Part shown: positions 1,099 through 43,978 of the stretch, one piece after another | Layout of the letters: each line of letters starts with the position of its first letter | Position numbering within the stretch: the first letter of the stretch is position 1 | NCBI GenBank assembly: GCA_029259185.1 | Contig: JAPDJF010000026.1 | Span: 1 to 43,978, forward strand | Source: Hadesarchaea archaeon | GTDB lineage: Archaea > Hadarchaeota > Hadarchaeia > Hadarchaeales > WYZ-LMO6 | Direction: 5' to 3' | DNA: 43,978 bases | Made by a program: the position numbers and the translations under genes | The notes under the pieces: generated by a model | Seen by the model: only the letters and a program-made list of their open reading frames with translations | What the model was told of the DNA's origin: nothing | Databases searched by the model: none

Positions 1099-1106
1099 AG
1101 TGGGGG

Positions 1107-1598: not shown

Positions 1599-1610
1599 AT
1601 GTCCCCAGCC

Positions 1611-2558: not shown

Positions 2559-4949
2559 TCAGTTCGACCCCTGCCCGATCACTTGCTCCACTCGGGTTGG
2601 CTCGTCCTTGTTTTTATCCCGGTAGAAACGGTAGAGGTAACCGCTGACCGCAGCCTCAAGTCGCTCTTCATGGGTTATGAGCAATACCTGGCGGATCAGC
2701 TCGGGCAAGCGTTCCCTGAGAACCTTAGCGAGCTCTTGAATACCCTCCGAGTCCAAATTGTGGGTGGGCTCGTCAAGCACTATCCAGCTCAGTCTCGGTG
2801 CTAGGGCCAAGGCGAAGGCTATTCGCATGACCAAGCACGCGTCGGTTCGCTCTCCGCCGCTCGCTACTCCTTCAACGGGGACCCAGTTCCCCCTCCGGTC
2901 TCTGAGCTCCAGCACGTAATCTCCCTTCGCCCCGACTGAAAGCCTCACCGAGGTATAATCCCCGTAGGGGTAAATTCCATCCCACAGATCGGCCATCGTC
3001 TGATTAACCAAATCGACGAACCTAACACGCATCGCCACCTGGGTTCTAGAGAGTGCCGTCTGGATGAGGTTCAGTGCGGTGGCGGCTTCGCTGAAGTATC
3101 TCGCCTCCACCTCACTCCTCCTGAGTGAAAAGACTTTATCCTCGATGCTTTTTATCAGCCTCTTGCGCTCTTCCACCAGCTTCTCTTTCCCCCTGATGTC
3201 TGCTTCGATCGCCCCCACTCGGCTTATGAGCCTCTCCCGGGCTTCCTTCAGCTCTCTCAGCTTAGACTCACTGTACGTCTTCTTGATCTCCCAGATCTCT
3301 CGTTGGAGGTTCAACCCTTCTGCCTTCTTTCTCCTCAACTCCGCCTCCTGTCTTTGCAGATCGGAGCGGAGTTCCAGCTTCGACTTCAGATCCGACAAAC
3401 GAGTGCGGGTGTCCTCGACTCGTCCACGCACGCGCTGGAGTCTTGCCCTCAGATCCTCCACCGCCACCCTCTCCTCGCGCAGCTCCTCGTTCACCTTCCT
3501 TTGACTCTCGAGCACCTGCCCGTGTTCCTCCAAGACTCGAGGGAGGTCATCCACCTCTCTCATCATCGTCCTCACCTTCTCCTGGAGTTCGAGTTTCTCG
3601 CCGAGTGCTCTCTCCAGCCTCAAGCACTCAGCCTCGAGGACGGGGATCCTCTTCTTCTTCTCGTCCACCTCACGCCGCCGCCTCTCCATCAAACTCCGCT
3701 TTTTCCCTTCCTCCAAGGGAGACTCACACACGGGGCACGTCGACCCGGCCTCTGCTAGCTCTTCCACACTCGACTCCAGCTCGTTCACCCTCTCCCTCGT
3801 GGAGGTGAGTTCAACCCTGAGGGAGTTGAGTTCCGACCGGATTCTCTCTATCGAGGCGGATAGCTCATCCACCCCGATCTCCTTGAGTTTTCTCTCGATC
3901 CTCCGCTTCTCCTCCATTTCGTGCTCGAGTCTTCTCCGGTTCTCCTCGAGCATGCTCAACCTAGCCTCAAGCTTTCCCACCTTGGACATGGCGGAGTTGA
4001 GTTCCGAATTCAGCTCCGCCTCCTCTCTCAGAGCCTCCGAGCTGGCACGCTCCGCTTCCCGATACTCCCTCTCCAGCTCATCCATTCCCACCTCGATCGC
4101 TGGGCCGAGCTTCGCCCTTATCTCATCCACCCTGCGCTTCAGGGTACGGATCTCCCCCTCCTTCCCATCCATAGCTCGTTCGAGCTCTCCCAGCCTGCGC
4201 CCGGCATCTTCCATCTCTCTCAACGGTGCCTCGATCTCTTCCAGTTTAGACCGAAGTTCCCGGAAGCGACTTTTGGCCTCCTCTAGGGACGCTTCGAGGT
4301 TCTTAGCCTCCTCGACGTAGGTCGGGAGGAGGGCTATCGAGGAATCTTGACGGAGCTGGGCCGCTAACCTTTCCCTATCCTGGGCCCTGTCCGCGAGTCC
4401 CCTTGAGAGGGAGCCCAGCCTCCTACGTGCCTCCTCAAGCTTGTCCATCCCCATCAGCTCGTCTATCTTCTCCCTCCTCTTCCCCACCGGGAGGATCAGG
4501 AAGAGATCCAGCCTATTCTGCTGAGCGTACACGGCCCTCTCGAATAGGTCATAGTCCATCCCTAGCAATGACTGGACGAGCTCAGTCACCCTGCTCGAAC
4601 TCGGGCTCTCTATTACCCCTCCGTTGACCTTTCTCAGCTCGGAGAATGCGGTTCCTTCCCCCCTCCTTATCACCCTCTTGACCACGTACTCCTCCCCCTC
4701 GGGGGTGACGAAACCCACCTCCACCTCAGACGATTCCGCGGGCTCGGGCTTGCCCCTGATGAGATCCTCGAGTTTGATCTTCCTCATTTTGACATCGGGG
4801 GTCGTTCCGAAGAGGCCCATCGTTATCGCCTCTAGCACGCTACTCTTCCCCGTCCCCATCCCTCCGACAAGGATGTTGGTACCATCCCCGAACCTGAGCT
4901 CGGTGTCCCGGTGAGATCTCCAATTCTTGAGCCTCACGTAGGTTATCAT
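2559..4949 (-). CDS. rad50: DNA double-strand-break repair ATPase Rad50
   Basis: Walker A GGMGTGKSS, Q-loop, long coiled coil with a CPVC zinc hook, SGGE signature and LDEPT Walker B. Coupled to mre11. Confidence 0.93.
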   Translation of the reverse strand: MITYVRLKNWRSHRDTELRFGDGTNILVGGMGTGKSSVLEAITMGLFGTTPDVKMRKIKLEDLIRGKPEPAESSEVEVGFVTPEGEEYVVKRVIRRGEGTAFSELRKVNGGVIESPSSSRVTELVQSLLGMDYDLFERAVYAQQNRLDLFLILPVGKRREKIDELMGMDKLEEARRRLGSLSRGLADRAQDRERLAAQLRQDSSIALLPTYVEEAKNLEASLEEAKSRFRELRSKLEEIEAPLREMEDAGRRLGELERAMDGKEGEIRTLKRRVDEIRAKLGPAIEVGMDELEREYREAERASSEALREEAELNSELNSAMSKVGKLEARLSMLEENRRRLEHEMEEKRRIERKLKEIGVDELSASIERIRSELNSLRVELTSTRERVNELESSVEELAEAGSTCPVCESPLEEGKKRSLMERRRREVDEKKKRIPVLEAECLRLERALGEKLELQEKVRTMMREVDDLPRVLEEHGQVLESQRKVNEELREERVAVEDLRARLQRVRGRVEDTRTRLSDLKSKLELRSDLQRQEAELRRKKAEGLNLQREIWEIKKTYSESKLRELKEARERLISRVGAIEADIRGKEKLVEERKRLIKSIEDKVFSLRRSEVEARYFSEAATALNLIQTALSRTQVAMRVRFVDLVNQTMADLWDGIYPYGDYTSVRLSVGAKGDYVLELRDRRGNWVPVEGVASGGERTDACLVMRIAFALALAPRLSWIVLDEPTHNLDSEGIQELAKVLRERLPELIRQVLLITHEERLEAAVSGYLYRFYRDKNKDEPTRVEQVIGQGSN

Positions 4950-6232
4950 CTCCCCACCCCCTTCAGCTCGATCTCGACCAGCTTGCTCACCACCTCCATC
5001 ACCCTCTCTCTGGCTTCGTCCTCCCTTCCCTCGACCAGCAGCCCATAGAGGGTTCTCACGTCCAGTGGATAGGAATACCCAAGCTCCCTGAGGTTGGAGT
5101 CGAGAAGCGAAACCGCTATTTCCTCCATCGAGCGGGCATCCTTCAGTTCCCTCAGCATCTCTATCCTCTCACGCAGCCCCGGGGAGACGAGTTCATCCTT
5201 ACTTATGCTCACTATCGCGCGATCGGAGAGCTCGTCCACAACGGACCGCTCGTCGAAGTCGCTCTTCGATGTCTCCCTCGAAAGGGTTCCTTTCAGTCTG
5301 AGCCGTACGAGGGGGAGCTTCTGGAGGTTGCGCCTCTCCCCAGAGAGCATCTCCCCGATCTTCCTCCTGATTGCTTCGTTCAGGGTGGGCAGATCCACAC
5401 CGTCGAAATTCATCTCCGCATAGAAGAAGTCTCTGGGACTCTTCAGCTCGATGAACTCGTAGCGGGTCTCCTCACCCACATCCACCATGTAAAAACCCTT
5501 TCTGCTCTCCGCCTCAACCTGCAACAGCTGAGTACGTTCGATACTCCCAGGAAACAGCAGGGGTTTTCCACCCACAGAGGACTCCGCCCGATAGTGCACA
5601 TGTCCACAGAGATACATGTCGAACCCTCTAGGAAGATCCTCGGGAGATATGGTGGGTCTTTCCTCCGTCGAGTACACGTACTGACCAACGGACTGGTGGA
5701 GCATCAGGACGTTGAACGCTCCCTCGACGGGTTTGGGATTCCAAGTGTCCAGGATGCTCTTCGCCTGCCTCTCGGGAACGTTGCTCATCCCGTGAACGGC
5801 GAGGATCCCCTCGGGAGTCTCCAACACAACCGCACTTGTGTGGAGGTGGATGAGGATTCCCGCCGCTTCCAGCGCCTCCACCGGATTCGTGAGCCCCCCA
5901 ACCCTGCGCTCGTGATTCCCGTGGATGGCTACCATAGGTACCCCACGGAGCGCAAGGGGAGAAATATCCGCTGGATCCTTTGCAAGGGTCTCCCTCAGCT
6001 TGACCTCGCCCCTCCCCCTCGCCAAATGAGAGGTTAGCACTCTCAGCGCTCTCGCCCAGATCTCCTGTTTGGGAATCCTCGCGTCAAAGATGTCCCCCAG
6101 CATCAAAATCACTTGGGCACCACGTTCGACCGCGAGCTCAAGCGCTTCCTTCAGCTGGTCAAAGGAGTCCTCACCCCTAGGAGTCCCCCACTTCACCCCC
6201 AAGTGGGCATCCCCTATTACTGCAAACTTCAA
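4946..6232 (-). CDS. mre11: DNA repair nuclease Mre11
   Basis: Phosphoesterase motifs GDAHLG, GDIFD, GNHE, HQ and GHVH. Probable TTG start at 6232; overlaps the rad50 start (ATGA). Confidence 0.92.
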   Translation of the reverse strand: MKFAVIGDAHLGVKWGTPRGEDSFDQLKEALELAVERGAQVILMLGDIFDARIPKQEIWARALRVLTSHLARGRGEVKLRETLAKDPADISPLALRGVPMVAIHGNHERRVGGLTNPVEALEAAGILIHLHTSAVVLETPEGILAVHGMSNVPERQAKSILDTWNPKPVEGAFNVLMLHQSVGQYVYSTEERPTISPEDLPRGFDMYLCGHVHYRAESSVGGKPLLFPGSIERTQLLQVEAESRKGFYMVDVGEETRYEFIELKSPRDFFYAEMNFDGVDLPTLNEAIRRKIGEMLSGERRNLQKLPLVRLRLKGTLSRETSKSDFDERSVVDELSDRAIVSISKDELVSPGLRERIEMLRELKDARSMEEIAVSLLDSNLRELGYSYPLDVRTLYGLLVEGREDEARERVMEVVSKLVEIELKGVGR

Positions 6233-6315
6233 AATACCACCATCAAAGTTTTCCCCGAATCGTTTTGAAGTTTTCCCAGTCCAACGTTTTATGACCAAAA
6301 ACTTATGATTAAAGG

Positions 6316-7545
6316 ATGTTTTCCCCTTGGACCGAAAAGTACAAGCCATCGAAATTAAGCGAAGTTGTGGATCAGGGGCAAGCGGTCAAGGCTGTAATGG
6401 AGTGGGCGAGGGGGTGGGAAAGGGGAAAGCCTGCCAAACCCGCCCTCCTGCTCTACGGTCCACCAGGCTCAGGCAAAACCACCATAGCGGAGGCCCTAGC
6501 CAAGGAGTTCGGATGGGACTCGATCCAGCTGAACGCGAGCGACAAGCGTACCTTCGAGGTGCTCAAGCGAGTCGCGGGGGAAGCTGCGACCACGGGAACC
6601 CTCTTTGAGGGGGCTGGGGGGAGAAGACTCGTGATCCTGGACGAGGCTGACAACATTCATTCCCGCTCCGATTTAGGGGGGTACAGAGCGGTGAGGGAGG
6701 TCCTCGGGAGAACCACGAATCCCATCATCCTCATAGCGAACGATCGCAGGGCAATACCCTCCGAGATCCTGAACTCGTGCCTGCAGGTGAACTTGAGACG
6801 TCTCTCACCCCAATCCATCGAAAGAGCCCTCGAGCGGATATGTGAAATGGAAGGAATAGAAGCAGAACCCCTAGCGCTGAAACGGATAGCCGAGGCCTCC
6901 CGGGGTGATCTCAGGGCTGCCATAAATGACCTCCAGACATCGGCCACCGGGAAGAAGAGGTGCGCGATAAGGGATCTCGCCCTATACCTCAGGGATATGG
7001 AATCCAACGTGTTCCAAGTATTAGGAGGAATCCTCCACGCATCCTCGGTTGGGGAGGCGAGGAGAATCCTCTGGAGCCTCGATATGCCTCCAGACGAAGC
7101 GATAGGGTGGATAAGCGAGAACGCACCGCTCCTCGCCAAGAACCCCCTCGATAGAGCCAGGATCTATGAGGCCCTTTCGAGGGCGGATATCTTCCTCTCC
7201 AGGGCGAGGAGGAAGCAAGTGTACGGACTCTGGGGATACGCCTCCGACCTCATGGCCGCCGGACCTTCGATCCTGAGGGATGGAGAAACCGTGAGCAGGA
7301 GGCTCCAAGTACCGAGTTCAGCCATCGCTTACAGACAAACTAGAGGGGAGAGAACCTTCCGGGAAAGCGTGGCGAGGAAAGTGGCCTCCCGGTGTCACAC
7401 CTCTTCAAGGGTAGCTCGTAAGCACTTCCTCAAATATCTGGGGGTCATCCTGAAGCACGATAGGAAGAGGGGGAGGGCCATAGCGGAAGAGCTTGAACTC
7501 ACCGAGGGGGAGGCAGAGTACCTCAAGTCGGTGGTGGATCTCTGA
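6316..7545 (+). CDS. rfcL: Replication factor C large subunit
   Basis: PWTEKYKP, GPPGSGKT, LNASD, LDEAD and GDLRAAINDL motifs, plus the RFC-L C-terminal LSRADIF motif. Confidence 0.93.
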   Translation: MFSPWTEKYKPSKLSEVVDQGQAVKAVMEWARGWERGKPAKPALLLYGPPGSGKTTIAEALAKEFGWDSIQLNASDKRTFEVLKRVAGEAATTGTLFEGAGGRRLVILDEADNIHSRSDLGGYRAVREVLGRTTNPIILIANDRRAIPSEILNSCLQVNLRRLSPQSIERALERICEMEGIEAEPLALKRIAEASRGDLRAAINDLQTSATGKKRCAIRDLALYLRDMESNVFQVLGGILHASSVGEARRILWSLDMPPDEAIGWISENAPLLAKNPLDRARIYEALSRADIFLSRARRKQVYGLWGYASDLMAAGPSILRDGETVSRRLQVPSSAIAYRQTRGERTFRESVARKVASRCHTSSRVARKHFLKYLGVILKHDRKRGRAIAEELELTEGEAEYLKSVVDL

Positions 7546-8633
7546 AGATCGTCAAGAAGCTCCAGCTCGGAAGGCTAGCAACCGATCTCCCGAACCGGAG
7601 GCTTCCCGTCTACAACTGGTTCCCTATGAAGGAGGCATTCTCCAGGGATCTCGTTGTGATGCTCATCCGTGGATTTTATCTGGGGAAGGGGAACTCGGTC
7701 TTGGATCCGTTCTGCGGAGTGGGCACCACCCTGCTCGCGTGCAAGGAATTGGGGGTCGATTGCTGGGGATACGATGTCCACCCCCTCATGCTCTTCGTCT
7801 CCCGCGTCAAGCTCGGGGAGTACGACGTCCGCGAGCTGGAGGAGGTGTCGAGGGTTCTACTCGCCGCCCCCTTCGAAAGGCCAGAAGTTCGAGCTTCCGA
7901 TTTCCTCCGGAGGTTCTTCCCGCAACACGTGCTGGAGGACATCTTCTTCTTCAAGGGGAAGATAGAGGAAATCGGTAGCGGAGCGATAAGGGATTTCTTG
8001 CTCACCGCCCTTGTGGGTGCGGCGATGGAATGCACGTGGGCACGGAGAGATGGGGCGGCGGTGAAAGTGAGGATGAGGAAACTCCCACCGTTGAGGGAAG
8101 TCCTGTCCCGGAGGTTGAGCTGGATGCGCGACGACGTGGAGAGACTTGGGGTCAAGAGGGCGAGCATCACGGTAAAGGAGTGCGACGCGAGACGGATGGA
8201 TGCCGATGACGAAACGTTCGACGCCGTGATCACCTCCCCCCCCTACCTCGGAAAGTTCGAGTACGCGAGGGCGTATCGTGTGGAGGAGGAGATCCTCGGG
8301 CTCGAGCCCCCCTCGCCGGAGAAGCTTCTGGGTTCCCCCAAGAACCCAGAGGAGGTCGCGGATCCGGAACTCTATTTCAACGACCTATCGAAAGTCGTGA
8401 ATGAAATGTACAGGGTGTGCAAACCCGGGGCAGATGTCGCGCTCTTGGCCTCGGACGGGTGTTTCCCCAAGCGAGGGGTAGTGGAAGTTTGCCAGCCCCT
8501 CCGAACGATGGCGGAAAGGGCAGGATTTAAGACTAGGCGAGCACTCGTGATCAATCGCAGGTTCTGCACCTCCCCCTCCAGACGCAAGCTCGGGATTTCC
8601 CAAGAGTACATCTTCCTCTTGAGGAAGCCGTGA
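7542..8633 (+). CDS. Orphan amino-DNA methyltransferase (probably m4C, alpha-type motif order)
   Basis: DPFCGVGTT (motif I) precedes ITSPPY (motif IV). The frame is open upstream of ATG 7626 through the conserved-looking PVYNWFPMKEAFS to a CTG at 7542 that overlaps the rfcL stop. Confidence 0.8.
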   Translation: MKIVKKLQLGRLATDLPNRRLPVYNWFPMKEAFSRDLVVMLIRGFYLGKGNSVLDPFCGVGTTLLACKELGVDCWGYDVHPLMLFVSRVKLGEYDVRELEEVSRVLLAAPFERPEVRASDFLRRFFPQHVLEDIFFFKGKIEEIGSGAIRDFLLTALVGAAMECTWARRDGAAVKVRMRKLPPLREVLSRRLSWMRDDVERLGVKRASITVKECDARRMDADDETFDAVITSPPYLGKFEYARAYRVEEEILGLEPPSPEKLLGSPKNPEEVADPELYFNDLSKVVNEMYRVCKPGADVALLASDGCFPKRGVVEVCQPLRTMAERAGFKTRRALVINRRFCTSPSRRKLGISQEYIFLLRKP

Positions 8634-8640
8634 GGAGTCC

Positions 8641-9564
8641 TCAGCCACCTTTGAAGTATGGCTCCCTAAGCTCCACGGCACGTCTGAACGCTTCCCTAAC
8701 TCCATCCCCGTCGCCCTCCCTCAGAGGGGAAAGCACATCTACTAAGTTGTCGTTGCGCATCAGACACGGTTTCAGGTAGCCGTCGTGAGTCAGTCTCAGG
8801 CGGGTGCAGTGGGCGCAGAACTCTGAGTTGTGCATAGGTCTCACGACCTCGACCTCTCCGCCCTCCAGGCGGTACACCCTCCTAGCCTGCATCTCGTTCC
8901 GCGTTCTCACCTCGAGCGCAACGCTTTCGAATTCCTGCTCAAGGGATCTCAGATCGAAGTGGAAATGGTCGTACACCCATGGAGGGGAATCGGGAAGGCG
9001 GATCAGCTCGAGGAGCTGAAGCATCACCCCCTTCCTTCGAGTGAACTCTATCATCCGCCCCACCTCTCGCTCGTTCACCCCCTTGAGCACAAGCATGTTC
9101 AGCTTTAGGGGAACCAAGTGTGCATCCAGCGCCGCCTCTATCCCTGCTAGCACCCGATCCAGCGCCTTGACTCCTGTGAGCTTGGCGTACAGCCTTGGGT
9201 CGAGGGTGTCGAGACTCACGTTCACCCTTTTCAGCCCCGCCCGAGCTAATCCCCTTGCCCTCTCAGCGAGCTTCACCCCATTCGTCACCATCGAAACTTC
9301 TTCGATCCCGGGCTGGGTCACGGCAGCTACTATCTCCTCGAGATCGTCCCGCATGAGCGGCTCCCCCCCCGTGAGTTTTATTTTGGATATTCCGAACTCC
9401 GAGCCCACCCGAACGATTTCCCCGATCTCCCCGGCCGTCATTTGCCTATTCCCGCGATCCTGACCCTCCCTGTGACAATACACACACCTCAAGTTACAGA
9501 CGTTCGTGACGGAGATGCGCAGGCTACGTACGGGCCTGCCAAACCTATCCCTCACCGGAACCAT
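8641..9564 (-). CDS. moaA: GTP 3',8-cyclase MoaA
   Basis: DRFGR..LRISVT, CNLRCVYC, TGGEP, FCAHCTRLRLT...PCL and a terminal GG. Confidence 0.95.
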   Translation of the reverse strand: MVPVRDRFGRPVRSLRISVTNVCNLRCVYCHREGQDRGNRQMTAGEIGEIVRVGSEFGISKIKLTGGEPLMRDDLEEIVAAVTQPGIEEVSMVTNGVKLAERARGLARAGLKRVNVSLDTLDPRLYAKLTGVKALDRVLAGIEAALDAHLVPLKLNMLVLKGVNEREVGRMIEFTRRKGVMLQLLELIRLPDSPPWVYDHFHFDLRSLEQEFESVALEVRTRNEMQARRVYRLEGGEVEVVRPMHNSEFCAHCTRLRLTHDGYLKPCLMRNDNLVDVLSPLREGDGDGVREAFRRAVELREPYFKGG

Positions 9565-13065: not shown

Positions 13066-13473
13066 ATGAGGGATAGAAAAGAGGTGATCAAGAAAATCGC
13101 AGACACTTTGTCGGAGTTCGAAGAGGTGGAATTGGGCTATGTGTTTGGCTCATTTTACGAAGGGGGGGAATTCAGAGACATCGATGTCGCGATACTGGTG
13201 TCTGGCTTCCCTCCTGCGTACGACTCCGCTGTGCTCGCCAACAAGATCGCCGGAGAACTCGAGAAGGTGCTTGGTCATGAATTCGAATTCGACGTGAAAG
13301 TCCTCAACTCCTCCCCGATTTACTTTCAGTACGAGGTCATAAGGAAAGGTAAACCGGTTTTCTGCCGTGATGAGTCCAACCGTGTCAGGTACGAGAGCAC
13401 TGTTCTATCCGAGTACTTGGACTACCGGGAGGTTCTGGACTGGTTCGACGAAAAATTGCTCGCGAAGGTTTGA
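13066..13473 (+). CDS. Minimal nucleotidyltransferase (MNT) antitoxin, MntA-like
   Basis: YVFGS...RDIDVAIL, DVKVLN.SP..FQYEVI..G. Confidence 0.9.
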   Translation: MRDRKEVIKKIADTLSEFEEVELGYVFGSFYEGGEFRDIDVAILVSGFPPAYDSAVLANKIAGELEKVLGHEFEFDVKVLNSSPIYFQYEVIRKGKPVFCRDESNRVRYESTVLSEYLDYREVLDWFDEKLLAKV

Positions 13474-13474
13474 G

Positions 13475-13897
13475 ATGTTCGACAAGCGGGGAATCGTGGA
13501 TCACCTGAGGGAACTCGGGCGGGCAACGGAGGACTGGAGGAGGTACCAGAACATCTCGCTCGATGAGTTGCGGCGGGACAGGGACAAACAAAATATGGTC
13601 CTGCACGCCCTTCTGGTCAGCATCCAAGCGGCGATAGACATTGCAAATCACCTGATCGCGGAGCGGAGTTTGAAGAGGCCATCCACTTATAGAGAAAGTT
13701 TTCTGATCTTGTCTGAGGAAGGGGTTATCCCATCCGATCTCGCCAGCGAAATGTCCGAGCTGGCTGGCTTCAGGAACGTGTTGGTTCACCTTTACTGGGG
13801 GCTCGACCTCGAAGCGGTTCACGGCATGCTGAAGGCGAAGTTGAGCGTCGTGAAGGAATTTGAGAGAGTAGTGAAAAAGTTGGTGTCCGGAAAATAG
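13475..13897 (+). CDS. HEPN/DUF86 ribonuclease toxin, HepT-like
   Basis: GFRNVLVHLY matches the R-x4-H-x-Y motif; IQAAIDIANHLI; starts 1 bp after the MNT gene. Confidence 0.9.
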   Translation: MFDKRGIVDHLRELGRATEDWRRYQNISLDELRRDRDKQNMVLHALLVSIQAAIDIANHLIAERSLKRPSTYRESFLILSEEGVIPSDLASEMSELAGFRNVLVHLYWGLDLEAVHGMLKAKLSVVKEFERVVKKLVSGK

Positions 13898-13978
13898 AAT
13901 CCCGCCAAAGAACTTCCGAAACTGGCTTGGGCCGCCGGATCAAGATCTTCTCCAGCCCGAAAATAAGAAGACGAGAGC

Positions 13979-14391
13979 TTAGCTCGGCCCCACGTCGAAG
14001 AATCCCAGTCCGAAGGAGGACTTCGCCCCAGCACCGAGCACTTTTCCTACGCCTAGCAACCACTGCCCGACCTCGTTTATCTCCTCGAACTCGTAGTCCG
14101 CGATCCCAGTCCAGCATTGCCAGAACTCCCTCCTACCCGAGCGACGAGAGTAACCGATCAAACGGTGGTGGTGCCGTGCGACTGGGTTGACCCTCCCCTT
14201 GACCTCGGGCTCGGGAACCCTGCTTCCGTCACCATACTCGTTGACGAGCAGGACCAAGCGCTGCCTTATGAGCCTCAACAGGTGTTCGGGAGATGGGGGG
14301 AAATCCTTTGGGAGCTCCATGGGTGTGCGGAAGCCCACGCGCAGGCGGGTCTGCTTGAGGGTGGAAGTTCTTGAACATCAATGACCTTCAT
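13979..14391 (-). pseudogene. cas6: CRISPR endoribonuclease Cas6, C-terminal half only
   Basis: RVGFRTPMEL (the F.TP strand of the second RRM) and the terminal Gly-rich loop LGAGAKSSFGLG. The N-terminal RRM is missing and there is a probable frameshift near 14365. Confidence 0.8.
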
Positions 14392-22334: not shown

Positions 22335-25300
22335 TTGTGTGGAATCGTCGGCTACATCGGTAAACGCAAAGCAGCGCCCCTCTTATTCGATGCACTGAGG
22401 CGTTTGGAATATCGGGGGTACGATTCCATCGGGGAAGCGACCATCTGGAAGGGAAAACTATACGTGAAAAAGGATCGGGGAAAAATCGAGGATGTCCATC
22501 GCAAACTAAAACTCGACGATTTGCCAGGCAATGTGGGGATAGGGCACTGTCTACATCCCGAGACCATAGTCCAACTGGGCGATGGCAGGATCACGCGTAT
22601 TTCCGAGATAGATCGAAAATGCCATGTCTGGGCATACCGTATTCACGAGAGAAAATTCGTGCGTGCGAGGGCTCTGTGCTTCAGACACCCCGCCCCCCCT
22701 TACCTCCACAGGATAAAGACTCAGTTCACCGAAATCGTCTGCACAGGGAATCACCGTCTGCTCGTGGCGGGGGCGAACGGGAAGATAGTCGAAAAGAGGG
22801 TAAGGGATATCGAAAGAGGTGACTTGCTCCTCTGCGCTGGGAGGATTTCGATCGGGGGGAGGTCGAAGGAGCTTAGAGACGCGCAGGATAAGCAGTACAT
22901 CGCCCTCACGGCTGAGGGTGCGACGAAGGTGTCTTTCCCACGCAAAACGGGGAAAAAACTCATGCAGCTCGTGGGCTACATGCTTGGAAGTGGACACCTC
23001 GGGAAGCGAACCGTGAGAATCGAGGACATGGACAGGTCCCTCTTGGAGAGATACAACGAACTCTTCCGAGATCTCTTTGGGATCTCCGGGCGGATCGTGA
23101 GATCGAAACGAAAGGATGCGTACTCTCTGGAAATAAACGACGAACGCTTGTGCGAGTGGTTCACGGAAAACTTTCCGGAGTTACGGCGGGGGGAATTCCC
23201 AACTTGGATCGGTGGGCTTCCCGAACCCCAAGTACTCGCATTCGTCGGTGGCTTCTTTGATGCGAAGGGGATCATCGACTCCGATGGCGGACAGCTCCTC
23301 CTCAGGGGGAGCCGAAAGAACGTGAGGATGATCCAAACCCTCTTACTCAGAGCTGGCATCCTCTCATCCTGCACCCGATTCATGCCCAATGACTCGAATT
23401 GGAATGATCCCCACCCCCTGACGATTTCGAACCGCGACCAAGTGAAAAGATTTCTCGAGAGAATACCCATCCTCTCAAGTGTTAAATCGGCAGAAGCGAG
23501 AGATGCCATGCGCAAACTCTTAAAGGGTTCTCCTCGCACCGATTTCGAATTGCTGATTTCAAAGGAAAACACTCGCAAATCCCTCAGCCATCCCTCGAAA
23601 GGCTGGAGGCTTGCCACAATGCGTTCCATCCATCGAACTCAGAGAGACGGAGGGTCAAAAAAAACACCTGAGTTTTCGGGCGCACCAGTCGTGTTTCAGA
23701 AGGTCGTTTCAAACGAGAAGATCAAGAGCGATGTGAAATATGTGTACGACTTAGAGGTTCCGGGACTCGAAAATTTCGTGGCGAACTGCATCGTTTCCCA
23801 CAACTCACGCTGGGCAACCCATGGGCGTCCATCGAAGGTCAACGCCCATCCACACCTCGACACCTTCGGAAAGGTTGCCGTCGTGCACAATGGAATCTTG
23901 GAGAATTACCTAGAACTCAAAAACTTCCTCCGAAAAAAGGGATACCGTTTTTCCTCTCAGACCGACACGGAGGTGATCCCGAACCTTATCTCCTATTTCA
24001 TGCGAAAGGGAAACAGTTTGGAAAAAAGCACCGAAGAAGCTACGAAGCATCTCATTGGAAGCTTTGCCATCGCTGTGATCTGCACCGGGGAACCAAAAAA
24101 ACTCGTTGGAGTCAGGAGGGAAAGCCCACTCATCGTTGGGGTGGGGGATGGAGAAATGCTCTTGGCCTCGGACGTTCCAGCCCTGCTACCCTTCACTAGA
24201 CGTGTTATGCCTCTCCAGAACGACGAGATGGTGGTGCTGACGGAGTCATCGGTGGTCGTGAGGCGCTTGTCCGATGGAGAAGTGGTGAAGAGACCACCTA
24301 TTACCGTGACATGGACCGCCGAGATGGCGGAGAAAATGGGATACCCGCACTTTACCCTCAAAGAGATATTCCAACAACCCGAAGCCATACGGGAGACCCT
24401 GAGGGCCGCCCCCGGAGAACTGGAGAAGCTCTCGAACCTCTTCGTGAGATCGGATAGGGTGTATGTGGTCGGGTGTGGGACTTCCTATCACGCAGCACTC
24501 GTGGGGAAGTATATCCTCGCCCGGCTAGCAGACTTCTCCGTCGAAGCGGTGATAGCTTCAGAATTTCAGGAGAGCTGCAGGGTTGATCGTAGGAGCGCGG
24601 TGCTAGCGATAACTCAATCGGGGGAAACGGCTGACGTGCTCAAAGCCGTGAAACTCGCCAAGGCAGTGGGTGCCAGAGTGGCATGCCTCACCAACGTGGT
24701 GGGAAGTTCCATAACACGAGAGAGTGATTTGGTCTGCCACACCCACGCTGGGCCGGAGGTGAGCGTCGTGGCGACCAAAACTTTCGCTTCTCAAGTCGCA
24801 TATCTCTCCCTCTTCTCGATCCGGATGGGGGAGAAGACCGGGACGCTGAGGAGATCGGAAGCAAGCGAACTGTGGTCCGAGCTCCTTCGAATCCACGAGG
24901 CTGTAGAGGAGGCGGTTCGCGATTCGGTGGGCAAAACTAGGAGGATAGCGAGGAGATACTTGGATGCTGAGCATTTCTATCTCATAGGGAGGGGGATAGG
25001 CTACCCAATCGTGATGGAGGGTGCCCTGAAAATAAAGGAGATATCCTACATTCACTCCGAGGCGCTGGCGGCTGGAGAACTCAAACATGGCACCCTCGCT
25101 CTCATCGAGAAGGGAACTCCGGTAATAGCGGTGGCTCCCAACGGCGGCGCCAAAGCTAGGTTGATCAGCAATATCGAGGAGATCAAGGCAAGGGGGGCGA
25201 CTATCATAGCCGTGGCCGAGGAAGGCGACCCTGAAGTGGCTAAGCACGCGAACGTAGTGATCCCGGTTCCGAAGGTGAAAGAATTGTTCAGCCCCCTCGT

Positions 25301-25403
25301 CTTTGTCCCCCCACTTCAACTCCTTGCATACCACCTCTCTGTCGGGAGGAACCAAGATCCAGACAGACCTAGGTCGTTGGCAAAATCCGTCACCGTCGAG
25401 TAA
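22335..25403 (+). CDS. glmS: Glutamine-fructose-6-phosphate transaminase, intein-containing
   Basis: MCGIVG, LEYRGYDS, GIGH|intein|SRWATHG, two SIS domains and C-terminal PRSLAKSVTVE. Confidence 0.96.
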   Translation: MCGIVGYIGKRKAAPLLFDALRRLEYRGYDSIGEATIWKGKLYVKKDRGKIEDVHRKLKLDDLPGNVGIGHCLHPETIVQLGDGRITRISEIDRKCHVWAYRIHERKFVRARALCFRHPAPPYLHRIKTQFTEIVCTGNHRLLVAGANGKIVEKRVRDIERGDLLLCAGRISIGGRSKELRDAQDKQYIALTAEGATKVSFPRKTGKKLMQLVGYMLGSGHLGKRTVRIEDMDRSLLERYNELFRDLFGISGRIVRSKRKDAYSLEINDERLCEWFTENFPELRRGEFPTWIGGLPEPQVLAFVGGFFDAKGIIDSDGGQLLLRGSRKNVRMIQTLLLRAGILSSCTRFMPNDSNWNDPHPLTISNRDQVKRFLERIPILSSVKSAEARDAMRKLLKGSPRTDFELLISKENTRKSLSHPSKGWRLATMRSIHRTQRDGGSKKTPEFSGAPVVFQKVVSNEKIKSDVKYVYDLEVPGLENFVANCIVSHNSRWATHGRPSKVNAHPHLDTFGKVAVVHNGILENYLELKNFLRKKGYRFSSQTDTEVIPNLISYFMRKGNSLEKSTEEATKHLIGSFAIAVICTGEPKKLVGVRRESPLIVGVGDGEMLLASDVPALLPFTRRVMPLQNDEMVVLTESSVVVRRLSDGEVVKRPPITVTWTAEMAEKMGYPHFTLKEIFQQPEAIRETLRAAPGELEKLSNLFVRSDRVYVVGCGTSYHAALVGKYILARLADFSVEAVIASEFQESCRVDRRSAVLAITQSGETADVLKAVKLAKAVGARVACLTNVVGSSITRESDLVCHTHAGPEVSVVATKTFASQVAYLSLFSIRMGEKTGTLRRSEASELWSELLRIHEAVEEAVRDSVGKTRRIARRYLDAEHFYLIGRGIGYPIVMEGALKIKEISYIHSEALAAGELKHGTLALIEKGTPVIAVAPNGGAKARLISNIEEIKARGATIIAVAEEGDPEVAKHANVVIPVPKVKELFSPLVFVPPLQLLAYHLSVGRNQDPDRPRSLAKSVTVE
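22548..23804 (+). mobile_element. Intein (419 aa) in GlmS with degenerate LAGLIDADG endonuclease
   Basis: Starts CLHPET, block B TGNHRLL, ends VYDLEVPGLENFVANCIVSHN followed by Ser(+1). Endonuclease-like blocks are LVGYMLGSG and FVGGFFDAKG. Confidence 0.92.
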
Positions 25404-38972: not shown

Positions 38973-39728
38973 GTGGGGGTTGCGGTGAAGAAAGAGGTTC
39001 TAATATCTGCCCCGAGCACCAGACCCGTTTTCAAGGGGATCCAGAAACTCTCCCTCCTCGACTATCCAGAGAAGATGGCAACCATCGTCTTCGTTGGAGG
39101 GTGTAACTTCAGGTGCCCGTTCTGCTACAACGCGGAGCTTGTCTTGAACTCCCCAGAGCTACCGTCGGTTCCCGAAAGCGGGATCCTCGAGTACCTCGAA
39201 AACAGGAGGGAGTGGCTAGATGGGGTTGTGATAACGGGGGGAGAGCCGACAATGTACCCCGAACTCCCCGACTTTCTCCAGAAAGTCAAACGAATTGGGC
39301 TAGAGATCAAACTCGATACCAACGGCTCGAACCCGGGGATGCTCGGGGAGCTGATGAGGGAGGGGCTGGTCGACTACGTGGCCTTGGACGTGAAAGCACC
39401 TCTACGCGAGGAGAAGTACGGAGAGGTCGCTGGAGTCCCGAACATGGCAAGGCTCGTCGAACGAAGCGCAAAACTCCTCCTCTCCAGTCAAATCGAGTAT
39501 GAACTCAGAACCACCGTAGTCCCGACCCTCCTCGAGGAGAACGATGTGCTCGAAATAGCCGAGCGAATAAAGGGGGCCAAGCGATACTACCTACAACAGT
39601 TCAAGCGGGCGACCACCCACTTGGATGAAAGGTTCTCCAAGATCGAACCCTACCCGCTTGAATTTCTGAGAGATCTGCAGAAAAAGGTCTCAAGCTACTT
39701 CAAGATTTGCAAGGTGAGGGGTGGATGA
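38973..39728 (+). CDS. nrdG: Anaerobic ribonucleotide reductase activating enzyme
   Basis: SLLDYP, GCNFRCPFCYN, TGGEPT, KLDTNG and RTT. Directly upstream of nrdD. Confidence 0.92.
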   Translation: MGVAVKKEVLISAPSTRPVFKGIQKLSLLDYPEKMATIVFVGGCNFRCPFCYNAELVLNSPELPSVPESGILEYLENRREWLDGVVITGGEPTMYPELPDFLQKVKRIGLEIKLDTNGSNPGMLGELMREGLVDYVALDVKAPLREEKYGEVAGVPNMARLVERSAKLLLSSQIEYELRTTVVPTLLEENDVLEIAERIKGAKRYYLQQFKRATTHLDERFSKIEPYPLEFLRDLQKKVSSYFKICKVRGG

Positions 39729-42700
39729 GCGAGAAGATAAAGAAGATCAGGAAGAGAGACGGCCGGATAGTGGACTTCGATAGGGAACGTATAACCAACG
39801 CGATATTCAGGGCAGCAGTAGCGGTCGGTGGTAAAGATAGGAGGGTGGCGGAACTCCTGACCGACGATGTGGTCAGGATCTTAGAGGAGGAATTCGTGGA
39901 CGAAATCCCAAGTGTGGAAGACATCCAAGATGTGGTGGAGCGTGTCCTCATCGAGCATGGACACGCGCGTACCGCCAAAGCCTACATCCTGTACAGGAAA
40001 CAGCACGAGGAACTCAGGAGGATTCGGTCGACGTTCATAGAGGTGGAGCGCATCGTCGATGACTACCTGAACCAAGCGGACTGGAGGGTCAGGGAGAACA
40101 GCAACGTTGGATACTCCCTCTCGGGACTCATGCTCCACATCGCAGGGTCCGTGATCGCGAACTACACGTTAGACAAGGTTTATCCCATGGAAGTGGCTGA
40201 CGCCCACAGGAACGGTGATTTCCACCTCCACGACCTCGGGATGGGTATCACTGCTTACTGCGCCGGGTGGAGTTTAGGCCAGCTCCTAGCGGAGGGGTTC
40301 AATGGGGTTCCCGGCAAGGTGTCCTCCAAACCCCCCTCACATCTCGATACCGCCCTCCTGCAAATGGCGAACTTCATAGGATGCTATGATGACCGGACGG
40401 AGATCCTGACCCGGGAAGGATGGAAGCTATTCGAAGAGCTCTCGTACGAGGATGAAATCCTCACACTCAACCCGGAAACCTATGAACTCGAGTACCAGCG
40501 TCCGACTAGAATTTTCAAATACGACTACGACGGGGAGGTGATCTCCATCAAAACGAAGTCGATCGACTTGCTCGTTACCCCGAACCACAGGTTCTTCGTC
40601 GAGCGCCCGAGCAAGGCGGGGGGAAAACTCATTTTCAGAAAAACTTTTACAAGAGCCGATAGGCTGAGAAGCGCGGACAGGGCTCCGAGGACGGGCTATT
40701 GGAACTGTAGGGATCAGGATTACTTCGTCCTGCCGACCATGGAGGAGCGCAAGGGGGAGGAGTCGAGCCGGGGGCGAGTCAGGCACTTGTCTGAGATCAA
40801 GATCCCAATGGACGACTGGCTCCGTTTCCTTGGGATATACCTAGCTGAGGGCTCGATCCACGCGGGCGGGGATGGAGAAGGGAAAGGGACGAATTATCTC
40901 ATCAGGATCACCCAGAGGGATCCAGAGAAGAGGGGAAAAATCCGGGAACTTCTCCAGAGGCTTCCTTTCAAGTACTATGAAACTTCCCGCGATTTCATAA
41001 TTTTAAGCAAACAGCTCTGGACATACCTGAAGGAACTGGGAAAGCCCCACGAGAAGTATATCCCCCAGGAGTTCAAGGAGTTGCCGCCCAAGAGGCTCTC
41101 GATCCTTCTGGAATGGATGTTAATGGGGGACGGAAGTTACTACTCGAGGGATGGCCTTCGGGAATATGTGACAACTTCCAAGCGGCTGGCGGACGACGTG
41201 CAAGAACTCTTCCTCAAGGTCGGAAAGAGTGCCTCGGTACTGAGGCAAGAAAAGAAGACGATGATCTCTCCTATGGATGTTCGCCCGCACCGCACCAAAC
41301 CGCTATACCGGGTGAGAGAACACAAGTCGAAACGCAGCGTGTTGAAGAGCCAGAAGAAGGGGGAACCCAGCCGGAAGAGAACCCACTACAAGGGGAAGGT
41401 TTACTGCGTCGAGGTTCCAAACCACGTAATTTATGTCAGACGGAACGGGAAACCAATCTTCTGCGGGAACAGCCTCCAGAACGAGTGGGCGGGTGCGCAG
41501 GCGTTCAACTCGGTGGATACCCTCCTCGCCCCGTTCGTGCGGAAGGACGGGCTGAGCTACCGGCAGGTGAAGCAGGCGATCCAGCAGTTCGTGTACAACC
41601 TCAACATCGCTTCCCGCTGGGGAGGGCAGACCCCATTCACCAACATAACCCTCGACCTCACGGTTCCCGAGGACTTGGCAAGGCAACACGTCATCATCGG
41701 CGGCAGGCTCGGGGATCGAACCTACGAGGAGTACGAGGAGGAGATGGAGCTCATAAACCGGGCTTTCATCGAAGTGATGTTCGAAGGGGATATGAAGGGA
41801 AGGCCCTTCACTTTTCCAATCCCCACCTACAGCCTGACCCGTGATTTCGAGTGGGACAACGGGGTAGCTACGCCCCTCTTTGAAATGACCGCCAAGTACG
41901 GCCTCCCGTACTTCCAGAACTTCATAAACTCGAACCTGAAGCCGAGCGATGTGCGCAGTATGTGCTGCAGGCTGAGGCTCGACCTGACGGAGCTGAGGCG
42001 CAACGTGACGGGGGGATTGTTCGGATCCGGGGACAAGACGGGATCGATAGGGGTGGTGACCATAAACATGCCGAGGCTTGGATACCTCTCCCGGGATGAG
42101 GACGAGTTCTTCGAGCGCTTGGAGCACATGATGGAACTCGCCAAGGTGGCCCTCGAACACAAGCGCGAGATGGTAACTAGGAACATGGAGAGCGGGATCC
42201 TCCCGTACACGAAGCGGTACCTAGGAACCTTCAGGAACCACTTCTCCACCATAGGCCTCGTCGGGATGCACGAGGCCTGCCTGAACCTGTTCGGGAAGGG
42301 AATAGACGAGGAGGGGGGGAAGGACTTTGCCGTCAAAGTGCTCAAGTTCATGCTCAAACGCATCGCCACCTTCCAAGAGGAAACAGGACACCTCTACAAC
42401 TTAGAGGCGACTCCAGCGGAGGGGGTAAGCTACAGACTGGCCAAGATAGACAGACAGAAATACCCGAAGATAATCACCTCAGGGGAAAGGGTTCCGTACT
42501 ACACCAACTCCACTCAGCTCCCAGCGAACTCGGGGCTTGACCTAATCGATGCTCTCAGACACCAAGAGGAACTCCAAACACTTTACACGGGTGGAACGGT
42601 CTTCCACATTTACCTAGGGGAAAGCCTGGAGGACGGTGAAAGCTGTAAGAACCTTATGAGGAAAGTGGCATCCAAAACCAGACTCCCGTATTTCACCGTA

Positions 42701-42877
42701 ACCCCCACGTACTCGATATGTAGCGAGCACGGGTTCATATCTGGGGAAAGACACTCATGTCCCTCATGCGGAAAGGAGACGGAAGTGTACTCTCGGGTGG
42801 TTGGGTACTTCAGACCCGTGAAGAACTGGAACGCCGGGAAGCAGGAGGAGTTCCGTCAGAGGGCGATGTATCATTGA
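39725..42877 (+). CDS. nrdD: Class III anaerobic ribonucleoside-triphosphate reductase with ATP cone, intein-containing
   Basis: ATP cone (IRKRDG), YCAG, QNEWAGAQA, PFTFP, SMCCRL, EATPAE, YTNS, CxxH/CxxC Zn site and the glycyl-radical YSRVVGY motif. Confidence 0.96.
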   Translation: MSEKIKKIRKRDGRIVDFDRERITNAIFRAAVAVGGKDRRVAELLTDDVVRILEEEFVDEIPSVEDIQDVVERVLIEHGHARTAKAYILYRKQHEELRRIRSTFIEVERIVDDYLNQADWRVRENSNVGYSLSGLMLHIAGSVIANYTLDKVYPMEVADAHRNGDFHLHDLGMGITAYCAGWSLGQLLAEGFNGVPGKVSSKPPSHLDTALLQMANFIGCYDDRTEILTREGWKLFEELSYEDEILTLNPETYELEYQRPTRIFKYDYDGEVISIKTKSIDLLVTPNHRFFVERPSKAGGKLIFRKTFTRADRLRSADRAPRTGYWNCRDQDYFVLPTMEERKGEESSRGRVRHLSEIKIPMDDWLRFLGIYLAEGSIHAGGDGEGKGTNYLIRITQRDPEKRGKIRELLQRLPFKYYETSRDFIILSKQLWTYLKELGKPHEKYIPQEFKELPPKRLSILLEWMLMGDGSYYSRDGLREYVTTSKRLADDVQELFLKVGKSASVLRQEKKTMISPMDVRPHRTKPLYRVREHKSKRSVLKSQKKGEPSRKRTHYKGKVYCVEVPNHVIYVRRNGKPIFCGNSLQNEWAGAQAFNSVDTLLAPFVRKDGLSYRQVKQAIQQFVYNLNIASRWGGQTPFTNITLDLTVPEDLARQHVIIGGRLGDRTYEEYEEEMELINRAFIEVMFEGDMKGRPFTFPIPTYSLTRDFEWDNGVATPLFEMTAKYGLPYFQNFINSNLKPSDVRSMCCRLRLDLTELRRNVTGGLFGSGDKTGSIGVVTINMPRLGYLSRDEDEFFERLEHMMELAKVALEHKREMVTRNMESGILPYTKRYLGTFRNHFSTIGLVGMHEACLNLFGKGIDEEGGKDFAVKVLKFMLKRIATFQEETGHLYNLEATPAEGVSYRLAKIDRQKYPKIITSGERVPYYTNSTQLPANSGLDLIDALRHQEELQTLYTGGTVFHIYLGESLEDGESCKNLMRKVASKTRLPYFTVTPTYSICSEHGFISGERHSCPSCGKETEVYSRVVGYFRPVKNWNAGKQEEFRQRAMYH
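40382..41470 (+). mobile_element. Intein (363 aa) in NrdD with LAGLIDADG homing endonuclease
   Basis: Starts CYDDRTEILT, block B VTPNHR, ends VYCVEVPNH.IYVRRNGK..FCGN followed by Ser(+1). Endonuclease blocks are FLGIYLAEG and LLEWMLMGDG. Confidence 0.92.
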
Positions 42878-42900
42878 ATTCGCGATCCCCCCCACCGACC

Positions 42901-42977
42901 TCCGAGGGGATACAGGGGACGGAGGCGATATCCCTCTGCGAGGGGGCAAGGTTGCCTCCGTCCTCCTCTTCTCTGGA
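42901..42977 (+). other. Long GC-rich hairpin downstream of nrdD (terminator, 3' UTR element or small RNA)
   Basis: GGGGACGGAGGCGAT (42915-42929) pairs with GTTGCCTCCGTCCTC (42951-42965), with an apical CCTCT-GCGA-GGGGG and a basal TCCGAGGGGA/TCTTCTCTGGA stem. Confidence 0.5.
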
Positions 42978-43074
42978 AATGAGTTTGGTGTCAGCAAACT
43001 AGGTTTCGGAGGAGCCTCAAAATGGATTGCGATATAGGTGCATCTAGAATTCACGGATGGGTGTGGTCCGTCCG

Positions 43075-43390
43075 CGAGCCAAACGGTGGATGGTGCCTCC
43101 CGCGGACGCGTACGAAGACCTCGTCCACATGCACCCTTCCAGCACCCGGGCTTCAGCCCGCGCATCCACCACACAGGAGCTTCGAGCAGTGCTTGATCCA
43201 ATCGAGGATCGTCGATTCTGCCGGCCAGTAGTCGAAGTGCTATCCTAGGTGGCCACTGTTTCCGCGAGTGAGAGCCCCTGAGCGTAGAGATGCAGCGCTT
43301 CGGTGATTACCTCCTTCGGATAGGTCATGTTCTCGAAACCGTCGCGCTCCACGAAGTAGCGCTTGCACTTTTGCATCGATAGCCCTGTTC
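43075..43390 (-). pseudogene. Degenerate DDE transposase fragment (IS6-like, Zn ribbon-HTH-start of DDE)
   Basis: Reconstructs as YRCK/CKRYFVERDGFENMTYPKEVITEALHLYAQGLSL...STILDWIKH...GRVHVDEVFVRVRG, with frameshifts and a stop at about 43240. Confidence 0.72.
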
Positions 43391-43508
43391 ACTTCTTCGT
43401 CACCTACCAAGTCCAGCTTCCAAGATGAATTGACCAATCTTAAATCACTCCTAATCCTAGGAAAAACCGAACTAGAAAGTTTTTTTATGTACAGATGGGA
43501 TATTTTAT

Positions 43509-43978
43509 GTGCCACCTCAAGAGAAAAAAAGTGAGAAAGCTTTTGAAGAAAGGGGACAAATCGAGGCCCGGGAGCGAGAATATGTAAGGGAGCTTTACGC
43601 TGTTTCCGCGAGATTTCTCCCCATAGAAAAAAGCCGGGTACTTTACTCCAGTATCAAGGAGACGTTCGGTGCAGACCCGCTTGAACTTCGCGATGTTAAA
43701 ATGTACAAGCGGGGTGGGTACCGACAGTCCAAGCGCAAGCAGGAGTTCATGAGGTTGGGCCGTCAGGTGGCCATCGAGCGTGGGCTCCCCGCTTACAACC
43801 GTGCGGTCGGGCTCCCGATAGGGCAAAGGCAGCTCGAGCCACTCATAATCTCGGGTACCAACATCGTGGTGGAGCAGGACGATACCCACCACATCAACAA
43901 TCCGGCGATCCAGCAGATGCTCGATGACATAAAGCGCACCGTCATCGTTAACCTTGACATCGCCCATCGGATGCTCAC
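43509..43978 (+). CDS. mcrA: Methyl/alkyl-coenzyme M reductase alpha subunit, N-terminal part; truncated by the window edge and absent from the ORF track
   Basis: From GTG 43509: MPPQEKKSEKAFEERGQIEAREREYVRELYAVSARFLPIEKSRVLYSSIKETFGADPLELRDVKMYKRGGYRQSKRKQEFMRLGRQVAIERGLPAYNRAVGLPIGQRQLEPLIISGTNIVVEQDDTHHINNPAIQQMLDDIKRTVIVNLDIAHRML. This matches the McrA N-terminal motifs GG..QS.RK.EF, RG.P.YN, G.P.GQR.L, SGT, DD.H..NN.A.QQ..DDI.RT.IV..D.AH. Confidence 0.92.
   Translation, partial: MPPQEKKSEKAFEERGQIEAREREYVRELYAVSARFLPIEKSRVLYSSIKETFGADPLELRDVKMYKRGGYRQSKRKQEFMRLGRQVAIERGLPAYNRAVGLPIGQRQLEPLIISGTNIVVEQDDTHHINNPAIQQMLDDIKRTVIVNLDIAHRML

Follow-up and report, generated by a model that had tools for sequence, protein, structure and literature searches.

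The 43,978-nucleotide contig JAPDJF010000026.1 of the Hadesarchaea archaeon assembly GCA_029259185.1 (here called the window, and C10 among the contigs of its genome) ends inside an open reading frame that resembles the alpha subunit of methyl-coenzyme M reductase (MCR). The question raised by this locus is whether the frame is the start of a gene for an alkane-activating relative of that enzyme, an alkyl-coenzyme M reductase (Acr), as a first-pass annotation of the DNA letters had proposed, and whether the gene is whole in the organism. The genome consists of 54 contigs (1.27 Mb) and was rated 94.9% complete. The evidence described below makes it very probable that the frame represents the first 156 codons of acrA1, a gene of a Hadarchaeota alkyl-coenzyme M reductase cluster, and that this gene is intact in the organism. 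Two features at the window end are needed to follow the argument:

43509..43978, plus strand: 5′ part of acrA1, 156 codons plus 2 bases, with a GTG start, cut by the contig end
43852..43978, no strand assigned: 127-base repeat, found again letter for letter at the very end of contig C38 (5′ part of acrA2)

A listing of open reading frames in which open ends were allowed returned the frame at 43509..43976 of the plus strand as a GTG-started product of 156 amino acids without a stop up to the window end, in agreement with the first-pass description of a frame open to the edge. That description had also said that the frame was missed by the open reading frame track. This was correct: a frame that runs past the edge of the sequence appears in such a listing if open ends are allowed, and not otherwise. 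The gene is not hidden, as had been stated, but simply cut by the contig end. Comparison with family models identified the product as an MCR alpha subunit. The MCR_alpha_N domain (Pfam PF02745) matched with an E value of 7e-35 (121 bits, cut-off 27) and the alpha-subunit model NCBIfam TIGR03256 with an E value of 6.2e-34. In the Pfam match, residues 46-156 corresponded to profile positions 5-117 of 269, with the remainder beyond the contig end; the claim that every ordered McrA N-terminal motif is present thus applies to no more than the first 117 of the 269 positions, as the frame ends with the contig. Eighteen distinct solved McrA-type chains matched the frame, the best being 5n1q (E 8.5e-28) and the weakest 7b1s (E 1.3e-13), the alpha subunit of ethyl-coenzyme M reductase (Ecr).

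The alignment with 5n1q reproduced the three non-canonical substitutions noted before: DDTHH in place of DDLHF, NNPAIQQ in place of NNAAIQQ and KRTVIVN in place of RRTVIVG. Residues 43-44 of the frame paired with residues 4-7 of the solved McrA chains, leaving an N-terminal extension of about 37-42 residues, close to the 40 or so announced by the first pass, and a protein alignment showed that this extension is kept across the Acr-type clade. In an alignment of 46 rows, DDxHH was present in 24 of the 29 rows of the divergent clade and the asparagine after RT.I. in 28 of them, while neither was found in any of the 11 named canonical rows. The substitutions of the window frame are signatures of that clade.

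The genome contains two alpha N-terminal pieces, one at the end of C10 and one at the end of C38, and two alpha C-terminal pieces, located at the start of C38 (326 amino acids) and at the start of C13 (325 amino acids). The alpha C-terminal domain (PF02249) was recognized at the C38 start with an E value of 2.8e-23. The proteins nearest to the window frame (23 at E <= 0.001 among 402 candidates) were 596-643 residues long; the best match, a protein of 608 amino acids, was 85% identical, and the five that carry organism names all belong to Bathyarchaeota BA1/BA2 (71% identity), Helarchaeota or Hodarchaeota. A scan of one genome per species found 15 alpha loci, distributed among Hadarchaeota (3), Bathyarchaeota BA2 (1), Methanoliparia (3), Helarchaeota (5) and one uncultured archaeon (3). 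The trees included all 15 of these loci, or 13 in the case of the C-terminal tree, from which L018 and L024 were omitted as C-terminally cut, together with 10 of the 23 nearest proteins, 5 representatives, 3 named cluster members and 11 canonical rows, which were chosen out of 120 listed proteins for carrying organism names and cover methanogens, ANME-1, Archaeoglobi, Korarchaeum, Nezhaarchaeales and Methanosuratincola. The alpha pieces of this genome entered the trees as separate rows.

In the N-terminal tree (46 rows, 156 columns) the window piece fell in a 29-row clade with 100/100 support and a branch of 0.78, and the 11 canonical rows formed a group of their own (96/96); the piece is short, and resolution inside the smaller clade described next was poor. 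In the C-terminal tree (44 rows, 326 columns) both pieces were placed in a 14-row clade of Hadarchaeota, BA1/BA2 and Methanoliparia (100/99), nested in a 27-row clade (100/100, branch 0.66). There, the C38 piece was sister to locus L012 (100/98) and the C13 piece to locus L011 (99/92). The tree check proposed by the first pass therefore set the fragment and both C-terminal pieces in an Acr-type clade with 100/100 support, which holds Hadarchaeota, Bathyarchaeota BA1/BA2, Methanoliparia and Helarchaeota apart from the 11 named canonical McrA. The active-site residues, another check suggested then, gave the same answer. The C38 and C13 pieces carry the blocks GFSNTV and GWAGQEIQDH where all 11 canonical rows have GFTQY and GF[YF]GYD.QD, although the glycine of the G-x-D.QD block is retained in the pieces of this genome. 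We take the canonical blocks to hold the substrate-channel tyrosine and the modified thioglycine region. Neither by clade nor by these blocks do the pieces belong with canonical Mcr. Assignment to Ecr found no support either, since the pieces were no closer to the solved Ecr alpha chain 7b1s than to other MCR chains; among the 18 chains, 7b1s came last in the comparison with the N-terminal piece and 14th in that with the C-terminal piece, the latter giving E values of 2.4e-52 for 7b1s and 6.8e-60 for a solved canonical McrA.

The better match of the N-terminal piece to a solved canonical MCR than to the solved ethyl-CoM reductase would suit a methane-metabolizing MCR, and then a host that is a methanogen or a methane oxidizer. 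We regard this as very improbable. Besides the trees and the active-site blocks, the gene content of the host argues against it. MtrA was not found in the genome, nor was a second, canonical Mcr, the only two alpha genes both being Acr-type. Acyl-CoA dehydrogenase had 8 matches in the genome and none in two methanogen controls, 3-hydroxyacyl-CoA dehydrogenase had 2 strong matches, thiolase had 5 matches over the cut-off, and CdhC was present. Beta-oxidation genes were lacking in both controls. Judged by its genes, the host would be an alkane or fatty-acid oxidizer and not a methanogen. The earlier proposal of an alkane degrader is in line with the beta-oxidation genes, the presence of CdhC and the lack of MtrA and canonical Mcr matches. 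On the methyl branch, the Mer model gave a match below its cut-off (202 against 348.7 bits).

The cause of the truncation was sought at the contig ends. In addition to the repeat shared by the ends of the window and C38, the first 127 bases of C38 are the same as the first 127 bases of C13. These shared ends are an assembler k-mer overlap at a repeat common to both alpha paralogues: when a de Bruijn assembler collapses a repeat, the contigs around it keep overlaps that all have the length of one k-mer. The paralogues acrA1 and acrA2 are identical around the missing core and differ most after the GFSNTV block; their N-terminal pieces agree at 125 of 152 positions (82%), their C-terminal pieces at 274 of 326 (84%). 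The assembler stopped because the two genes share an identical central stretch, and the rest of acrA1 would lie at the start of C38. Residues 158-283 of P0001, the nearest full-length relative, had no tblastn match in any contig of the genome, from which it follows that about 126 codons (378 bases) of each alpha gene are absent from the bin.

That the middle 126 codons are missing from a bin of such completeness, and that a transposase remnant lies 130-270 bases upstream, could also be expected if acrA were truly broken, a pseudogene or remnant of which the edge frame is all that is left. We consider this highly unlikely. Both junctions are exact 127-base overlaps of contig ends, typical of a collapsed repeat in de Bruijn assembly, and the orthologues are unbroken in two relatives. 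In L012 (Ca. Hadarchaeales archaeon JZ-2_201705_bins_146) the counterparts of the window piece (82.7% identity) and of the C38 piece (90.5%) lie 378 bases apart in one unbroken gene; after it come X, acrB, acrG, Y and the beginning of the second alpha gene (X and Y are two protein families discussed below). In L011 (Hadesarchaea archaeon WYZ-LMO6) the second alpha gene is whole, matching the C38 end at 80.6% and the C13 start at 87.7%, and is followed by X2 and a reversed CoA-ligase-like gene, as on C13. The link between the window and C38 consists of synteny with L012 and the 127-base overlaps, not of joined sequence; given the two unbroken loci, the only possible linear order of the contigs would be C10, C38, C13. 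The relatives G001, G003 and G005 each have one full-length alpha frame of 607-666 amino acids, and in G001 and G003 there are contigs that begin at the very same break. Public contigs point in the same direction. In 4 of 4 runs, which come from one study that is possibly the source of the assembly and are thus not independent, contigs of 774-821 bases start at 43707-43716 and extend 500-560 bases past the window end. In one of them (run X3) the contig shows the letters of the paralogue at 43841-43851. The DNA continues past the window end, and two paths merge there, as expected of two mosaic paralogues.

The downstream parts that the first pass had listed as a check were located: the alpha C-terminal pieces open C38 and C13, and C38 carries the sole acrB (PF02241, E 2.8e-96) and the sole acrG (PF02240, E 4.7e-90) of the genome. 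From the two unbroken relatives, the cluster order is acrA1-X1-acrB-acrG-Y1-acrA2-X2, an arrangement in which the two alpha paralogues would share a single beta/gamma pair. The features outside the window that belong to X and Y are as follows:

C38 (L005) 995-1606: X1, SCP2-fold protein, beside an alpha gene
C13 (L006) 985-1572: X2, SCP2-fold protein, beside an alpha gene
C38 (L005) 3815-5395: Y1, between acrG and acrA2
C13 (L006) 3825-5300: second member of the Y family, without a Pfam family
C6:46355-47782, C7:38242-39744 and C36:5236-6591: further paralogues of the Y family

Genes for maturation and activation of the enzyme form an eleven-gene run on C8 (L034, C8:7001-20000, at 161-8654), which includes the MCR glutamine C-methyltransferase, Mmp3, Mmp6, Mmp5, Mmp15, Mmp17, Mmp7, McrC and Mmp8; a McrD match in this run was weak and partial (73.6 bits, cut-off 100). 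The stretch C13 1647-8601, downstream of acrA2, encodes a protein resembling ADP-forming acyl-CoA synthetases, an aldehyde:ferredoxin oxidoreductase (AOR), two SCP2 proteins recognized by Pfam and a 156-amino-acid protein whose gene also neighbors the alpha gene of BA2. An enzyme of the AOR type has been proposed in the literature for the step after alkyl-coenzyme M (alkyl-CoM).

The distribution of these genes was surveyed in the 41 genomes of the order, this one included. The alpha C-terminal domain was found in 4 of them, namely this genome and 3 of the 5 others of its family, and in none of the 35 genomes of the other four families; each of the 4 has exactly two copies. X and Y were found in 6 of the 41, namely this genome and all five others of the family, and in 0/35 elsewhere in the order; acrB was likewise present in 5/5 of the other family genomes. 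Two members of the family have acrB, X and Y but gave no match to the alpha C-terminal domain, which they probably lost to the same assembly break. These counts bear on the notion that the acr contigs are binning errors from another organism, for example a Bathyarchaeon, which the small size of C38 (just 5.9 kb) and an enzyme phylogeny that mixes phyla might suggest. Such an origin is extremely improbable. On the window, the start of acrA is continuous with 43 kb of housekeeping genes (Rad50/Mre11, RFC, molybdopterin synthesis, GatDE, GlmS, NrdD and GlyRS), with a Hadarchaeota-like GlyRS for which 10 of 15 organism-named matches have Hadarchaeota-type names and the best foreign identity is 70%. 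In addition, acrB, X and Y accompany the family throughout, and within the order X and Y stop at its border.

With the family, the clade and the gene order in place, a mechanism can be proposed. AcrA, together with AcrB, AcrG and coenzyme F430, would form an (alpha-beta-gamma)2 enzyme, which would join an n-alkane to coenzyme M (CoM) to give alkyl-CoM at the expense of the heterodisulfide of CoM and coenzyme B (CoM-S-S-CoB). Conversion of the alkyl chain to acyl-CoA would follow, and then its breakdown through beta-oxidation and the acetyl-CoA decarbonylase/tetrahydromethanopterin route. The acrA1 product would be an active enzyme, and its substrate would be a long-chain alkane. Alternatively, it could be an Acr-type enzyme for short- or mid-chain alkanes or other hydrocarbons, or one working in the alkane-forming direction; the region after the GFSNTV block, in which the alpha paralogues differ most, may tune the substrate. 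This alternative is unlikely. The nearest characterized relatives act on hexadecane (PMC11297162, PMC10811742), the clade also holds Methanoliparia, carriers of the SCP2 fold, a kind that binds C16 lipids, stand beside both alpha genes, and the genome has many acyl-CoA dehydrogenases.

Several points weigh against an intact, long-chain alkane-activating acrA1. No contig of the genome contains the central 126 codons, so that the evidence for an intact frame is indirect; the missing codons should carry the glutamine that binds the nickel of F430, and the relatives have the consensus GGAVAQEHM there. The substrate range would be that of the relatives, by analogy. The trees contain no Ecr row, as the candidates P0069 and P0058 proved to be of canonical type, and six long-branch rows, two Syntrophoarchaeum among them, fell on the canonical side, so that a single all-Acr clade was not recovered. 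Lastly, searches of this genome detected no genes of F430 or tetrapyrrole synthesis.

The last point was pursued in the whole family. The cfb genes for F430, which the first pass had suggested looking for, were not detected: in this genome, at its 94.9% completeness, there was no match to TIGR03282 (CfbD), PF00148 (NifD-like), PF00490 (porphobilinogen synthase) or PF01903 (CbiX). PF00148, PF00490 and PF01903 had no match in G001 (an assembly of 4 contigs), G003 or G005, and PF00148 and PF00490 had none in G004. G002 differs in having, on its 70-kb contig 15 (L035 5619-16980), a complete cluster of hemA, hemB, hemL, cobA, hemD, cfbE, cfbD, cfbB and precorrin-2 dehydrogenase, whose cfb and hem proteins had no match in this genome. 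The F430 and tetrapyrrole genes were therefore not found in 5 of the 6 family genomes, the markers searched varying by genome. Two other markers were tried. Mur_ligase_M as a marker of CfbE was dropped after giving no match in a Methanosarcina control, which makes its absence uninformative, and Fer4_NifH gave just weak P-loop matches. The full MCR maturation and activation cluster is retained in spite of this gap. Incomplete bins are a possible cause of it. Tentatively, and with somewhat less than even confidence, we suggest that most members of the family, this genome included, are unable to make F430 or any tetrapyrrole and obtain the cofactor from neighbors such as methanogens. The main texts of PMC10811742 and PMC11297162 and 8 supplementary files of PMC11297162 contain no mention of F430 or cfb, and a search of the literature on F430 and Hadarchaeota, as far as its sources were accessible, found no treatment of F430 synthesis in these archaea.

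The proteins X and Y accompany the enzyme. X has 203 and 195 amino acids in this genome and a conserved core of about 150, and at 12 of 15 loci, from all four named groups, a homologue is located no more than a few kilobases from the alpha gene and in most cases right next to it (Hadarchaeota, Bathyarchaeota, Helarchaeota and Methanoliparia). The structural model of X (mean predicted local distance difference test score, pLDDT, of 82.9) has an SCP2 lipid-carrier fold, with 6z1w as the top match (E 4e-7; template modeling score of 0.66 on the target). The 42 structural matches at E <= 0.001 were mostly SCP2 proteins and alkylsulfatase C-domains. X is a candidate carrier for long alkanes or alkyl-CoM. 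A literature search found no paper linking sterol carrier protein or SCP2 with alkyl-coenzyme M reductase (or Acr, alkane, archaea). Y has 526 and 491 amino acids on C38 and C13, respectively, and five paralogues in this genome. There are 5-7 matches per genome of the family, and within the order Y is confined to this Acr-bearing family. Outside the order, a homologue with 67% identity adjoins the alpha gene of BA2, and others that are shorter and match less well are located close to the acr genes of Helarchaeota. No Pfam family matched Y at E values up to 10. The structure atlas gave no match above 0.83 and a poor model, and the AlphaFold model had a mean pLDDT of 58.6. A wide structural search, in which SCP2 chains took the first 8 places, reached a best Z of 5.4, too low to indicate anything beyond a common arrangement.

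Hadarchaeota with Acr first became known through metagenome-assembled genomes (MAGs) and were later brought into culture (PMC11297162, PMC10811742), in accordance with the first-pass statement that divergent MCR homologues had been reported in this phylum. Hexadecyl-CoM was formed in cultures of Ca. Cerberiarchaeum oleivorans (PMC10811742). Ca. Melinoarchaeum fermentans grew on long-chain alkanes with methanogens, formed hexadecyl-CoM and transcribed acr highly, and its MAGs belong to the GTDB family and genus WYZ-LMO6 (PMC11297162). The group named 'putative long-chain alkane Acrs' comprises Acr of Bathyarchaeia, Hadarchaeota, Methanoliparia and Helarchaeota (PMC10811742). The gene studied here is an ordinary member of this published enzyme group, cut by an assembly artefact, and its biology is already published; the first-pass view of an Acr-type enzyme agrees with the trees, the active-site blocks and the partner genes. 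Like the present genome, Melinoarchaeum and Cerberiarchaeum are Hadarchaeota of the WYZ-LMO6 family that have two acrA in an operon with acrB and acrG as well as beta-oxidation and Wood-Ljungdahl genes, with hexadecyl-CoM in their case detected by mass spectrometry (PMC11297162, PMC10811742). Their sequences were absent from the named matches, so the likeness is stated with no direct identity figure.

The numbers of acrA differ between reports: three were given for Melinoarchaeum and a single operon for Cerberiarchaeum (PMC11297162, PMC10811742), whereas two alpha genes were found here and in three relatives. Two of the three Melinoarchaeum acrA are genes 1 and 6 of a contig with acrB and acrG as genes 3 and 4, and the third is gene 1 of another contig (PMC11297162). 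This layout, a six-gene contig with alpha pieces at both ends, equals that of C38 and C13, and the three published 'copies' may be fragments of two genes split at their shared core.

Among sequenced relatives, L011 and L012 have the same order, acrA1-X-acrB-acrG-Y-acrA2-X, identities of 80-83% in the N-terminal and 88-91% in the C-terminal pieces, and sister positions in the tree. They belong to another genus of the same family (this genome is of a different genus from all five relatives searched), and L011, to judge from its name as a WYZ-LMO6 MAG, may belong to genus WYZ-LMO6. L012 differs upstream, where nrdD has no match in the 10 kb before acrA1. The McrA-like proteins of Bathyarchaeota BA1/BA2 are from a different phylum, but they are 71% identical to the window piece and share the 14-row clade. 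In BA2 the genes X, Y and Z and an SCP2 gene adjoin the alpha gene, but acrB and acrG are 8 kb away from it. The Acr of Ca. Methanoliparum/Methanolliviera shares the clade and the GFSNTV and GWAGQEIQDH blocks, and an X homologue follows the alpha gene in L015, but identity is about 60% and the gene order is acrB-acrG-acrA. Canonical McrA (5n1q, 1e6v, 1mro) is of the same family and, by sequence, the same fold, with the G-x-D.QD glycine in common, but its active-site blocks are different, it has no N-terminal extension of some 40 residues and it branches as a clade of its own. The ethyl-CoM reductase alpha subunit (7b1s) is likewise a divergent MCR that activates an alkane, but is no closer than canonical MCR and has no place in the trees.

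The DNA upstream of acrA1 contains one further candidate feature:

43481..43490, plus strand: TATA-like A/T-rich stretch, 19-28 bases before the GTG, found by reading the sequence

This stretch may be the promoter of a transcript that has a short leader or none. Rfam over 42800-43978 gave no match at E values up to 0.1, and none of the six small frames between nrdD and acrA matched Pfam. A short multi-copy element occupies 43276-43465 of the window (and 43245-43376 on the minus strand), 45-230 bases upstream of acrA. Its segment 43299-43465 matches C1:54545-54708 at 97% identity, and 43276-43393 matches C2:79967-80084 at 96%; the depth of public contigs over the element is 4-8 times that of its flanks. 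A 43-codon minus-strand frame in this region resembles the N-terminus of an IS240/IS6-type transposase encoded on C4 (12/21 identical, E 3e-07). Farther upstream, NrdD (39707-42877) and GlmS (22335-25403) each contain an intein bearing a LAGLIDADG homing-endonuclease domain, and at 13367-14338 a HepT-like ribonuclease gene adjoins a short Cas6-like frame (Pfam E 6.5e-06).

These results have consequences for the study of the family. Because the two alpha genes have an identical core, the short-read assemblies of several genomes are interrupted at this one point, which makes acrA copy counts and presence or absence calls from MAGs unreliable. The apparent gap in F430 synthesis bears on where the nickel cofactor of archaeal alkane oxidation comes from, and the X and Y families bear on how long alkanes and alkyl-CoM are handled after activation. 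One more genome, of its own genus in the collection, joins the small set of Acr-bearing Hadarchaeota, and the operon layout of two alpha genes with one beta/gamma pair in this phylum is confirmed.

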